Shown: one piece after another, positions 16,448 to 20,620 of the stretch
Position numbering within the stretch: position 1 is the first letter of the stretch
How the letters are laid out: every line of letters starts with the position of its first letter
Source of the DNA: Candidatus Eiseniibacteriota bacterium
GTDB taxonomy: Bacteria; Eisenbacteria; RBG-16-71-46; CAZAMP01
Direction: 5' to 3'
Assembly (NCBI GenBank): GCA_965224245.1
Contig: OZ245046.1
Location: 3,360,001 to 3,424,000, forward strand
DNA: 64,000 nt
Translations under genes and position numbers: made by a program
The notes under the pieces: generated by a model
Told to the model about the DNA's origin: nothing
Databases searched by the model: none
What the model saw: only the letters and a program-made list of their open reading frames with translations

Positions 16448-17146
16448 GTGAGACAGAAGCCGTGGCAGAAGAAGGTGATTCGCCAGCTACCAACGTACGG
16501 GGGGCGGCTCGTCATCTTCTGCGGTCAGGGCAACGAGCCGATGCTCAGCGTCCTGCGATCGCACGTGCGGAGCTCCTCGGGAATCTGCCTGACGCTGGCG
16601 AAGAAGTGGATGTGCGAGCTGAGCAACGGACGCGACTTCTGGGACTGGATGATGCCCGGAGGTCAGCTGAACGCGGCCGCGGCCGCGAGCATCACGATCC
16701 AGCACGTCGACAAGGGACGGGCCGACGTCCCCGAGACGACCTCGGGTCAGCGGGCGCCGAGCCACTCCGGGACCACCGATGCGCAGTTCCTCGCGTTCTA
16801 CGGTCAGCTCGAGTCGTCCAAGCTGGTCATTCCGGGCGGCGCCAGCGGGTTCGGAAACCCTCCGGCGGGCGAAGTCCCCGCGGCGCTCGGCGCCGTCGTC
16901 CGGGACAAGCGACCTCCGGCCCAGGCCTATGCCCTGTTCAACATGCACGCCGACGGAGCGTCCGGACACTCGGTCGCCGCCGAGGCGATGAACTACGGCA
17001 TGGTCAGGTTCTACGACCCCAACATCGGAGAGATGGTCTTCGAGCGCGCGGACAGCTTCGCGGGCTGGATGGCCGACGTGCTCGGCAGCGAGGTCTACCA
17101 GACGTACACGGCCTTCAACTACCGGTGGTACAGCCGCTCGAGCTGA
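16448..17146 (+). CDS. YopT/AvrPphB-like (peptidase C58-type) cysteine protease domain protein
   Basis: Q…GICLTLAKKW (Cys), GHSVAA (His), FYDPNIGEMVF (Asp); order and spacing match the family. Confidence 0.72.
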   Translation: MRQKPWQKKVIRQLPTYGGRLVIFCGQGNEPMLSVLRSHVRSSSGICLTLAKKWMCELSNGRDFWDWMMPGGQLNAAAAASITIQHVDKGRADVPETTSGQRAPSHSGTTDAQFLAFYGQLESSKLVIPGGASGFGNPPAGEVPAALGAVVRDKRPPAQAYALFNMHADGASGHSVAAEAMNYGMVRFYDPNIGEMVFERADSFAGWMADVLGSEVYQTYTAFNYRWYSRSS

Positions 17147-17627
17147 TCGGGTTCCCGGCTGTACATGCCGGGGTCAGAACGCATTCTCCGGGGGAAGGGC
17201 CGGTCTCTGCATTCTCGGTCCGCTTCCGGCGAGCATCGACGTGGCGTTCTCATCGGCGAACGTGTACCCGGGTACACGTTCGATCAGCATCAAACGCCAC
17301 CAGAATGGTGGGTTGCATCGCAACCGTCAGGAAAGTGAAAGATCGGCCCTCCGGAATCACCCGTTGCCATTTCGGTAGGATCAGAAGGGCCGCCGACGGA
17401 GAGAGCCGCATGGCCGTCGAGGTTCGCTGGCGTCCCAACCGCGAGCCTGGTCATCAAGTGTCGGAGCATGCCGGCACACGTTGCATCGCGCACATCCACT
17501 TCGAGTCCACCCGCAGGGTGAAGCGATGCAGGACGGAACCATCGGGCCGCCTCGCGATGGTAGTAAGAGCAGGTCGGACGAAAGCAAACGGCAGCGGACG
17601 GCTTCGACTGACTGGCAGGCGTTGAGA

Positions 17628-17704
17628 TGGAGGGGACTCCGGGGGTTGAACCCGGGACCTCCAGATCCACAATCTGGCGCTCTAACCAGCTGAGCTAAGT
17701 CCCC
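17628..17704 (-). tRNA. tRNA-His (GUG), CCA encoded
   Basis: Full cloverleaf: acceptor GGGGACT/AGTCCCC, D arm GCTC/GAGC, anticodon arm CCAGA-TTGTGGA-TCTGG, T arm CCGGG-TTCAACC-CCCGG, then T-CCA. Confidence 0.97.
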
Positions 17705-19098
17705 AAGATCGATCTGACCGCGTCGACGACCGCGCCCGGTGCGACCGTCGACTGCGTGCGCGCACGCATGTCCTTCACCTGCACCTGTCCCGCTTCGGCG
17801 TCGTCGGGTCCGATGATCACGACCACCGGGACGCCCTGCCGCGCGGCGTACGAGATCTGTGCCTTGAAGGAGGTGTCTTCGCCCACGTAGATCGACGTGG
17901 CAACACCCGCGCGCCGCAGCTCGCCCGCGAGTCGTTGGTACCCCGGAACGAGCTCCGAGGCGAAGTTGACGATCATCACCTCGGTTACGGTGCGGGCGGA
18001 ATCTAGCATACCGAGGGCTTCCATTCCCGCGAAAAGCCGATCCACCCCGACCGACGTTCCCGTGCACGGCACGGCGGCGTCGGGCATGAACCGGCCGATC
18101 AGCGTGTCGTACCGTCCGCCCGAGTACACCGTCCCGATCTCGCGGCAGTCGTCGAGCACCGCCTCCCAGATGGGACCGGTGTAGTAGTCGAGCCCGCGCG
18201 CGATCGTCGGGTCGATCCGCCAGTCCGAGTCCGGAACGCCCGCGTCCCGTACGTACGCGGCGATGCGCCGCAGCTCGTCGAGCCCCTCACGCCCCAGCGG
18301 AACGTCGCCGAGAAACGTCTCGAGGCCGTCGAGCACGGCACCGATGTCGCCCTCGATCCCGAGGTAGCGCTCGACGAGCCCAATCTGTTCCGGGCTCAGC
18401 CCGAGTCCTCCGCCGTCACCCCCGGGGTCGCCCGAGCTCGCGGGTCGGGCCAGCTCGGCCAGGACGCCCTCGAGACCATCCTTGTCGATCTTGTCGAGCA
18501 CGCGGATCACCGCCGCGACCTCGTCGGGCGAACGGTCGAAGCCGCCCTTGGTGGCGAGCCCGTTCAGGATCTTCCGGTTGTTGACGCGAATCGTGAAGCT
18601 CGTGAAACCGAGCTCGCGGAGCACGGTGCTCATGATCACGATCATCTCGGCGTCGGCGAGCATGTCGCTCGTCCCCACCACGTCCGCGTCGAACTGCAGG
18701 AACTCGCGGAAGCGTCCGAGCTGCGGCTTCTCGCCACGCCACACCGCACCGATCTGGTAACGCTTGAACGGCTTCGGCACGTCCGGGTTCGCGGCCACCA
18801 CGCGGGCCAGCGGCACCGTCAGATCGAACCGGAGCGCGACCTTCTGGTTGGCCTCCTTCGGCTCGCGGCCCAGCCACCCGCCGCCGCGCGAGACGAATGT
18901 CCGGTAGATCAGCTTCTGGGTGTCGGTCTCGCCGCCCATCAGGACGCCCAGTCGCTCGACGGCCGGCGTCTCCAGCGGATCGAACCCGAATCGCTCGTAC
19001 ACGCGCCGGACGCGATCGATGATCGCCATCCGCTGGACCTGTCGGTCCGGCAGGTAGTCGCGGAACCCTCCCGCCAGGAGGGGCTTCACCTTGCTCAC
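17695..19098 (-). CDS. hisS: Histidyl-tRNA synthetase
   Basis: GFRDYLP, LRFDLTVPLAR, WRGEKPQLGRFREFLQFDAD (motif 2), IARGLDYYTG, GGRYD, C-terminal anticodon-binding domain. Confidence 0.97.
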   Translation of the reverse strand: MSKVKPLLAGGFRDYLPDRQVQRMAIIDRVRRVYERFGFDPLETPAVERLGVLMGGETDTQKLIYRTFVSRGGGWLGREPKEANQKVALRFDLTVPLARVVAANPDVPKPFKRYQIGAVWRGEKPQLGRFREFLQFDADVVGTSDMLADAEMIVIMSTVLRELGFTSFTIRVNNRKILNGLATKGGFDRSPDEVAAVIRVLDKIDKDGLEGVLAELARPASSGDPGGDGGGLGLSPEQIGLVERYLGIEGDIGAVLDGLETFLGDVPLGREGLDELRRIAAYVRDAGVPDSDWRIDPTIARGLDYYTGPIWEAVLDDCREIGTVYSGGRYDTLIGRFMPDAAVPCTGTSVGVDRLFAGMEALGMLDSARTVTEVMIVNFASELVPGYQRLAGELRRAGVATSIYVGEDTSFKAQISYAARQGVPVVVIIGPDDAEAGQVQVKDMRARTQSTVAPGAVVDAVRSILGT

Positions 19099-19182
19099 GT
19101 CGGTTCGCTCCGGTTGACCGGCCCCGGGGCCGACCCCGTCCGGTTCGCGGCCCCGTCGATCCGTGGGGTTTTGGAGCGGAGG

Positions 19183-19211
19183 AGAATAGGGCGGCCCCCC
19201 GGGAACGTCAA
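19183..19211 (-). promoter_or_regulatory. Sigma70-like promoter of hisS
   Basis: TTGACG-17 nt-TATTCT on the minus strand, about 85 nt upstream of the GTG start. Confidence 0.6.
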
Positions 19212-19246
19212 CTCCGAGCGGGCCACTTGAGGGACCCGGGTCCGCG

Positions 19247-19759
19247 TCAGGGTATCTCCTCGACGGGACCGTGCGTCTCGAGCCACTCCATCAGCATCGT
19301 GTAGACCTCGAAGTAGGTCGCACGGCGGACGGGGTGGGTGTGGTCGAGGAGCGCCTTCGGATCGATCCACGAGAACTCGTCGAACTCCTCGGAGACGGCG
19401 TCTTCCTCAATCTCACCCTCGAGCCTCAGAACGAACCAGATGTGGGATTGGCCGTCGTAGAGGCCGGTCTCCGACCCGCCGGCCCAGACGTAGCGCGTGC
19501 GCCGGGGAAGCAGGCCGAGGATCTTCACCCGCCGCGTGCCCAGCTCCTCGTACAGCTCGCGGAGCACGGCCTCCTCGGCATTCTCGTTCTCGTCCATCCC
19601 CCCCTGGGGGAACTGCCAGTGCGGGGACTCGGAGTCGTTGCGCCGCCCGACGAGGAGCCGACCCGCGGCGTCGAACACGAGCGCGCCCACGGCCGGACGG
19701 AAGCTGGGGCCGCCCTTGCCGAAGTGTGACTCGTCGCTGTTCGTCAGATCCGCCGCCAT
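19247..19759 (-). CDS. rppH: Nudix hydrolase, RNA pyrophosphohydrolase (RppH)-like
   Basis: FRPAVG, WQFPQGGMDENENAEEAVLRELYEELG (Nudix box), YDGQSHIWF, EFDEFSW. Confidence 0.78.
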   Translation of the reverse strand: MAADLTNSDESHFGKGGPSFRPAVGALVFDAAGRLLVGRRNDSESPHWQFPQGGMDENENAEEAVLRELYEELGTRRVKILGLLPRRTRYVWAGGSETGLYDGQSHIWFVLRLEGEIEEDAVSEEFDEFSWIDPKALLDHTHPVRRATYFEVYTMLMEWLETHGPVEEIP

Positions 19760-20167
19760 CGCGCATCACCGTCGTGGGCCCGGGGAAGTCACGCACGGGT
19801 GTCGCGCGGCGCTGGGCCCGGGCCGCGGACACGGCGGCGGTCGCCTCGACGGGATGTCGCACCGGGACCCCGTTAGCTCGTCGCCTGCGTTGCTGGTCGA
19901 TCCGGTTGGGTCGTTCAACAGTATAGCCACTGTGTCTCGGCAGCGGCAATTCACCCCGGAGGCGGTCCAAGAGCGCCGAGAACGAAACGGGCGTCGCCTC
20001 CCCGGACACGCTCCGGTACCGGCACGGGCGTCGTCGCCTTGACACGCTTTCCCGCGGGCGATTAACTATGGCGGCGTCGGTGGATCCCAGCAGAACCGGC
20101 GAACACGGATGCGAGTGTCGACCGGGAGTCGTGTCCGACCCTTCCCCCACCGGAGGCTTTCGCCGAA

Positions 20168-20620
20168 ATGGAGCTCTTTCTGATCGTCGTCGTGGCGGTG
20201 CTGATCCTGTTCCACCTCCACAGTCTCCGCAAGTCGACGGACACGCTCATCCAGCGTCTGGGTGCCTCGGCCCAGGCCCCGCCCTCCGCCATCCGACCCG
20301 AGGAGTTGAATGCACTCCGCTCACGGCTCAACGACGTGCAGTCGGCGGTCACGTCGATCCAGTCGCATCTGGCCGAGATGCGCAAGGACCACGAGATCCT
20401 CGACGAGCTCGAGGAGAACGTCATGCACGAGTGGGCCAAGGTCATCGAGGACAAGCTCGGCAAGCGCCCGATCTTCGTGGCCTGTCCGAAGTGCGGGCAC
20501 GAGGGCGGGCTCGAGCCGAACCTGCTCACCGAGGACGATTCCGAGTACGGCTGCCCCAACTGCGGCTCGATCCTGTCGGTGGAGCTGTTGCGCGAGACGT
20601 ATCCCGACGCGGTCATCTGA
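20168..20620 (+). CDS. Membrane-anchored coiled-coil protein with C-terminal zinc ribbon
   Basis: N-terminal TM segment, heptad-rich middle, CPKC…CPNC. Confidence 0.7.
   Translation: MELFLIVVVAVLILFHLHSLRKSTDTLIQRLGASAQAPPSAIRPEELNALRSRLNDVQSAVTSIQSHLAEMRKDHEILDELEENVMHEWAKVIEDKLGKRPIFVACPKCGHEGGLEPNLLTEDDSEYGCPNCGSILSVELLRETYPDAVI

Follow-up and report, generated by a model that had tools for sequence, protein, structure and literature searches.

What becomes of an mRNA whose stop codon lies inside the tRNA gene that follows it, when the encoded protein is the very enzyme that charges this tRNA? The question is raised by a stretch of 64,000 nucleotides (hereafter the window; positions count from its first letter) from Candidatus Eiseniibacteriota bacterium (assembly GCA_965224245.1, contig OZ245046.1, positions 3,360,001 to 3,424,000), in which hisS, the gene for histidyl-tRNA synthetase (HisRS), runs into the gene for tRNA-His on the same strand. 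An earlier note on this DNA had described a 10-nt overlap that places the hisS stop inside tRNA-His, and both coordinates and sequence are exactly as it claimed. The reading favored here, to which we assign a probability of roughly 0.6, is that hisS and tRNA-His form a co-transcribed, sideways-acquired cassette that lacks the usual extra 5′ G of tRNA-His (G-1) and has lost its intergenic spacer, and that the overlap is a tolerated by-product, not a regulatory device. The parts of the junction are as follows:

17695 to 19098, minus strand: hisS, 467 amino acids, GTG start, TAG stop (open reading frame and its translation)
17628 to 17704, minus strand: tRNA-His(GUG), 77 nt, CCA encoded (ARAGORN and Rfam RF00005)
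17695 to 17704, minus strand: the 10-nt overlap, in which tRNA nucleotides 1-10 are the last base of Leu465, Gly466, Thr467 and the stop (from the sequence)
17695 to 17697, minus strand: the hisS stop TAG, which is U8-A9-G10 of the tRNA (from the sequence)

The minus strand reads ATC TTG GGG ACT TAG across the junction. G1 of the tRNA is the third base of a hisS Leu codon, G2-U7 double as the Gly and Thr codons, and U8-A9-G10 is the stop; the C-terminus given by the open reading frame is ...AVRSILGT*. Because the shared codons are only the last three and lie past the end of the Pfam-defined domain (residue 463), the tRNA puts no constraint on the folded enzyme.

Is the overlap real? An artefact could stem from misassembly, from a spurious tRNA call, or from a hisS pseudogene with a very recent stop loss, and the metagenome-type assembly, together with the breaking of Logan contigs within the tRNA at 17656-17685, gives some grounds for suspicion. 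However, a 13.8-kb Logan contig matches 17656-19300 with 0 differences and joins hisS to tRNA positions 1-49; it comes from a run with 99% of the sampled words, probably the same sample under another assembler, and tests the assembler, not the biology. The tRNA is the sole ARAGORN call in the window and matches the Rfam tRNA model RF00005 at 70.2 bits (E 1.7e-14, 17631-17704). In the whole genome (G000; 6.94 Mb, 97% complete, 69% GC), tblastn finds hisS in one copy only, and ARAGORN makes 55 tRNA calls, two of them His. The second tRNA-His(GUG) call (G000:C1:3072399-3072495, locus L128, outside the window) is almost certainly a false positive: it spans 97 nt, with a long extra arm and a poor cloverleaf, and the Rfam tRNA model does not match it at any E up to 10, which leaves the gene beside hisS as the genome's only credible tRNA-His. 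The hisS frame is intact and shows the GC by codon position (0.71/0.45/0.88) of a genuine gene of this genome, and its N-terminus is alignable to homologs from residue 2. Genome-wide, 23 stop-to-stop frames of at least 80 codons end in a same-strand tRNA among the 55 calls, and a single one, the hisS frame (0.71/0.48/0.86), carries a coding signature; TAG occupies tRNA positions 8-10 in 27 of these 55 calls. Finally, the C-termini of relatives, which end in the same Gly-Thr (-GT; see below), argue against both assembly error and recent stop loss, the two escapes that the earlier note had allowed for. An artefact is thus nearly excluded.

The protein is a histidyl-tRNA synthetase of class IIa, with a catalytic core and a C-terminal anticodon-binding domain. 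It scores 351.2 bits against the TIGR00442 hisS equivalog (cut-off 286.75), and the HisZ models stay far under their own cut-offs; Pfam places PF13393 (tRNA-synt_His) at residues 11-355 and PF03129 (HGTP_anticodon) at residues 373-463, and the best solved-structure relatives are the HisRS entries 3net, 6nhi and human 4g84.

The tRNA is less ordinary than the enzyme that it accompanies, and arguably more surprising than the overlap. G-1 is the mark of almost all histidine tRNAs. Here position -1 (17705) is T, that is, G-1 is not encoded, and the discriminator is U73; the gene has the GUG cloverleaf of a canonical bacterial tRNA-His and lacks the encoded G-1 paired with C73. The acceptor stem runs from G1-C72 to U7-A66, the CCA is encoded, and the D-loop, AGCUGGUUA, has 9 nt. 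A search for Thg1 (PF04446) found none in this genome (97% complete); the control search recovered one from Methanosarcina.

How unusual is this within the phylum? The phylum comprises a single class (206 species genomes), and tRNA-His was recovered from 14 of them. Eleven have a canonical tRNA-His with g at -1 and C73 (the D-loop has 8 nt in eight of these and 9 nt in three). The remaining three, namely the window genome, G014 and G045, have a non-canonical one, and in all three it adjoins hisS. The G014 tRNA has t at -1, G1-U72, A73 and a 9-nt D-loop; the G045 tRNA (locus L075, 1369-1441, minus strand) has a g at -1 opposite A73, unpaired, with G1-C72, an 8-nt D-loop and no encoded CCA. The latter is a third acceptor-end variant within one phylum. 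That non-canonical pairs occur in three of the 14 genomes and always beside hisS suggests that matched enzyme-tRNA pairs move together.

Do the enzymes match their tRNAs? In Thermus HisRS a Gly-Gly dipeptide forms the G-1 pocket, and in Caulobacter its place is taken by Asp-Asp, as described in PMC4357726. The corresponding position, assigned across HisRS by a MAFFT alignment only, reads RGGG in the window HisRS and RGGG or RGGR throughout its clade (defined below), followed by a clade-specific insertion of ~10 residues that may be significant. Elsewhere it is acidic (PDED in G014, DDDGE at locus L061) or deleted (G045). Insertions at the pocket dipeptide are also found in native HisRS of one family of the phylum: loci L076 (genome G067) and L092 (genome G060) have ~20 residues there, and the tRNA-His genes linked to these enzymes are canonical (g at -1, C73). 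An insertion alone is therefore no sign of G-1 independence.

Where did the pair come from? A HisRS with an E-value of at most 1e-60 to the window HisRS occurs in 36 of the 206 genomes, and the locus was examined in 33 of the 36, with up to 1.5 kb of flank each. tRNA-His adjoins hisS at six of these 33 loci: it lies downstream in the window genome and in G045, 45 nt upstream in G014, and 165-790 nt upstream in three genomes of one family, where it is canonical. In a quick maximum-likelihood tree of HisRS (92 rows, LG+G4, SH-aLRT support), the native enzymes of the phylum make up two clades (5 and 25 rows), with all six rows whose tRNA-His is known to be canonical among them. The window HisRS and its nine closest metagenomic homologs (59-72% identity) form a clade with a support of 100, nested in a 60-row clade of metagenomic HisRS (support 99) whose labelled rows are mostly Patescibacteria; the G045 enzyme sits elsewhere in this 60-row clade, and that of G014 just outside. 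G045 belongs to the same genus as G020, and G020 has a native HisRS and a canonical, unlinked tRNA-His. On this tree, the simplest reading is at least two or three acquisitions of matched HisRS/tRNA-His pairs that do not depend on G-1:C73. In GC content, hisS (~0.685) is no different from the genome, and neither att-like repeats nor repeats of the tRNA sequence are found in 9000-30000; with no GC anomaly and no flanking repeats, any transfer into this genome would therefore be old. A literature search that covered a minority of subscription journals returned no report of a G-1-less tRNA-His in Patescibacteria.

A side observation concerns two relatives with assemblies that are 94-97% complete: G001, of the same family, and G027, a congener of G045. 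In both, no tRNA-His and no full-length hisS were found, and G001 has only the first ~65 hisS codons, at a contig end. The double absence fits a loss of linked genes together in an assembly gap; other causes are possible.

How are the two genes transcribed? Around them the window shows:

19183 to 19211, minus strand: promoter-like TTGACG-17-TATTCT, ~85 nt 5′ of the hisS start (consensus match only)
19247 to 19759, minus strand: gene for a NUDIX hydrolase, upstream of hisS (PF00293, E 4.7e-23; GC at third codon positions, GC3, 0.91)
17147 to 17627, no strand assigned: non-coding stretch of ~480 nt between the tRNA 3′ end and the convergent gene, without coding periodicity
16448 to 17146, plus strand: convergent downstream gene, 232 amino acids, GC3 0.89

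The promoter-like site is the only sigma-70-like one in a scan of 17000-19800, against 0.1 expected in shuffles; the same scan shows no promoter-like site within hisS and no terminator-like site between hisS and the tRNA or after the tRNA. The hisS mRNA thus presumably contains the whole tRNA. Among the sequencing runs listed for this sequence, none is of RNA. A different arrangement would have the tRNA made mainly from its own promoter within the 3′ part of hisS, with a minority arising by read-through from hisS, in which case the overlap would matter little. This idea appeals since the demand on a sole tRNA-His gene far exceeds the usual output of a synthetase mRNA, and the scan is limited to sigma-70 consensus sites. 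It is countered by the lack of a promoter-like site in hisS and by the G045 locus, in which the gap between stop and tRNA is just 29 nt; moreover, a full-length hisS mRNA would still carry at least 10 tRNA nucleotides, with no terminator-like site after them. We consider it rather unlikely.

The non-coding stretch 17147-17627 is slightly GC-poor (0.62) and shows no significant fold (z-score -0.98). The open reading frame 16462-17625, seemingly adjacent to the tRNA 3′ end, is discounted as spurious, with a GC3 of 0.56 and no Pfam match. A minimum-free-energy fold predicts a 12-bp GC-rich hairpin at 17722-17752 (minus strand), in the 3′ end of hisS and 17 nt 5′ of the tRNA.

If the two genes share one transcript, what happens to it? 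The expected processing site is:

17704 to 17705, minus strand: RNase P cut between U-1 (17705) and G1 (17704), predicted from the lack of a -1:73 pair

The cut is expected exactly here because no G-1 is encoded and no -1:73 pair can form. The earlier note had proposed that tRNA maturation strips hisS of its stop, and the physical premises of that proposal hold: the genes lie on one strand with no promoter- or terminator-like site between them, and the genome encodes a bacterial type A RNase P RNA (245.6 bits), SmpB, and a tmRNA with the predicted tag ANSHEMALAA. The stripping itself would proceed as follows. hisS and the sole tRNA-His would form one transcription unit, acquired sideways and not inherited within the phylum; upon loss of the intergenic spacer, hisS would be left without a stop of its own and end at the UAG present in positions 8-10 of every copy of this tRNA. 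Since the stop lies inside the tRNA, every translatable hisS mRNA must include at least tRNA bases 1-10. On an unprocessed transcript, ribosomes would complete HisRS normally (...SILGT). Once the tRNA folds, RNase P would cut at 17705/17704 and free it, leaving a stop-less hisS mRNA that ends ...AUC UU and would be cleared by tmRNA-SmpB and 3′ exonucleases; ribosomes still on the cut mRNA would need tmRNA-SmpB. tRNA maturation would thereby bound the useful life of the hisS message, and the overlap would be tolerated as a by-product of the tight linkage of a matched enzyme-tRNA pair.

Is the overlap peculiar to this genome? The nearest genome found, G045 (51% HisRS identity), has the same order, hisS then tRNA-His, and its hisS has a TAA stop of its own, 29 nt 5′ of the tRNA; the overlap is therefore dispensable. 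Closer relatives are known as proteins. Four of the nine closest homologs (P0003, P0007, P0009 and P0010) end in -GT and a fifth in -ST, and the number of residues past the last helix varies: 11, 3, 8 and 5 in P0003, P0007, P0009 and P0010, respectively, and 2 in the window protein. The same end is found in six of the 119 other listed HisRS homologs (also P0031 and P0080), versus ~0.5 expected from composition, and in none of the 33 locus-derived HisRS. Positions 2-10 of the tRNA encode Gly-Thr-stop in the window genome, and those of the G045 tRNA would do the same if in frame. Very probably, several lineages terminate in the same tRNA triplet, and their tail indels have kept the frame. The junction comparison that the earlier note had called for thus gives a divided answer: one relative has a stop upstream of the tRNA, while the -GT ends of four of the nine closest homologs suggest a shared overlap.

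Why would the frame be kept? Of the alternative frames, one runs through the whole tRNA without a stop, and the other reaches its first stop in the D-arm. Frame-breaking indels would therefore add long tails, and a kept frame is expected without any regulatory role; under the by-product reading, the frame would persist because the others run on into the tRNA.

Direct views of relatives' junctions are scarce. Scans of contigs from genomes and metagenomes gave no locus spanning the C-terminus of a close homolog; in the best one, L067 (81% identical), the contig stops short of it. One contig, assembled from a second study, carries a tRNA-His-like piece (10 differences) together with hisS sequence from near 17752. 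The shorter of the two matches has 30 letters, and the contig is a weak hint of a relative with the same gene order; its unaligned part, 17705-17751, takes in the predicted hairpin up to 17751. Separately, P0008, a member of the closest-homolog clade, ends -PA, the very residues that G-CCG-GCG-UAG, the 5′-terminal sequence of a G014-like tRNA-His, would specify. It is tempting to speculate that P0008 overlaps a different tRNA-His variant; GC-rich codons are common at these C-termini.

Could the overlap instead be a selected device, as the earlier note had suggested? HisRS termination and tRNA-His maturation would then compete to set the enzyme/tRNA ratio, possibly via HisRS binding to its own mRNA. 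Competition is inherent in the anatomy, the partners are an enzyme and its own substrate, and RNase P RNA, tmRNA and SmpB are all in the genome; the overlap frame is kept in at least five of ten clade members (59-72% identity) despite tail indels, and a G-1-independent HisRS might bind a precursor with a 5′ extension. Yet G045, with an identical gene order, manages with a separate hisS stop and 29 nt of spacer, four of the nine close homologs have different ends, and selection against read-through explains the conserved frame equally well. Nor is there any obvious sensor: an Rfam scan of 16500-20500 finds no T-box and no family besides the tRNA, the hisS leader contains neither a His-codon mini-gene nor a significant fold (z-score 0.38), and the fold z-score of the hisS-tRNA junction is not significant. 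Such feedback seems improbable. Slightly harder still to credit is its most elaborate form, a selected, synthetase-specific switch in which ribosomes and RNase P contend for the same 10 nt, HisRS, free of any need for G-1 in this lineage, binds the tRNA part of its own mRNA and thereby sets enzyme output per released tRNA, and tmRNA tagging removes the surplus.

Several points weigh against the by-product reading preferred here. The direction of transfer comes from one quick tree with few taxon labels, and the -GT ends of homologs speak for recurrence of the overlap at the level of protein sequence only. In a phylum so little studied, an internal promoter for the tRNA might escape a scan for sigma-70 consensus sites. 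Persistence of the overlap at 59-72% identity could also reflect selection for it. Finally, co-transcription, the cleavage site, the non-stop fate and neutrality are all inferred.

What would follow if the processing model is true? The locus would then show, in nature, the production of a tRNA at the cost of the stop codon in its charging enzyme's mRNA, and would offer a compact system for studying how termination of translation, RNase P and ribosome rescue compete. Apart from that model, the list of histidine tRNAs that do without G-1, a very short one, gains a U73, G1-C72 variant, and G-1-less HisRS/tRNA-His pairs are extended to another phylum; such orthogonal pairs are of practical interest for genetic-code engineering.

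How does the locus compare with known systems? A parallel to the proposed processing is tRNA punctuation in animal mitochondria, in which protein genes abut or overlap tRNAs and tRNA excision sets the mRNA 3′ end, as proposed here. There, incomplete stops are completed by polyadenylation, a remedy that is not known in bacteria. A precedent studied by experiment is the secG-leuU transcript of E. coli, in which the mRNA ends in a tRNA; RNase P frees this tRNA with a single cut, and the secG mRNA half-life is then reported as <30 s (Mohanty and Kushner, PMC2241853). The secG stop lies 14 nt before the tRNA and is kept after the cut, whereas here the spacer is minus 10 nt; furthermore, SecG has no functional link to tRNA-Leu, unlike HisRS and tRNA-His.

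The tRNA has its nearest known counterparts in alpha-proteobacteria. The G-1-less tRNA-His of Caulobacter crescentus is described as having A73, G1-U72 and a 9-nt D-loop with U20a (Yuan et al., 2011, PMC3064791), and enzyme and tRNA appear to have changed together (PMC3064791; Tian et al., 2015, PMC4357726). The features of the G014 tRNA-His are those of this Caulobacter type (PMC3064791). The window tRNA shares with the alpha-proteobacterial pair the absence of G-1, of C73 and of Thg1, and the 9-nt D-loop, a likeness by tRNA features; it differs in having U73 and G1-C72 in place of A73 and G1-U72, and its HisRS keeps RGGG where that of Caulobacter has Asp-Asp at the G-1 pocket.

As to the overlap, a search of the literature, limited to main texts and a minority of subscription journals, found no published case in which a synthetase gene overlaps that of its cognate tRNA. 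Non-stop overlaps between coding sequences and tRNA genes have, however, already been surveyed, and the hisS case falls into the class so described: Hudson, Lau and Williams (2014, PMC4131195) give 250 overlaps with an upstream coding sequence in the same orientation, among 115,660 t(m)RNA genes in 2031 genomes, and estimate that such overlaps, expected to yield non-stop messages, affect ~1 mRNA in 15,000. As here, a Pfam-positive coding sequence lies upstream of a valid tRNA gene in the same orientation and overlaps it, and maturation should remove the stop. The top case of their table is FtsW/RodA with tRNA-Ile in Helicobacter, and none of the cases consulted in PMC4131195 is a synthetase overlapping its cognate tRNA. 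The nearest case described there is smpB-ssrA in Carsonella, with possible feedback, in which, as in hisS/tRNA-His, the protein is a partner of the overlapped RNA (PMC4131195); that overlap occurs in an extremely reduced genome, whereas the present one is the sole overlap of its kind in a genome of 6.9 Mb. Within the class described by Hudson et al., the hisS locus is set apart by joining a synthetase to its cognate tRNA, by its probable recurrence across a clade, and by a tRNA-His without G-1.

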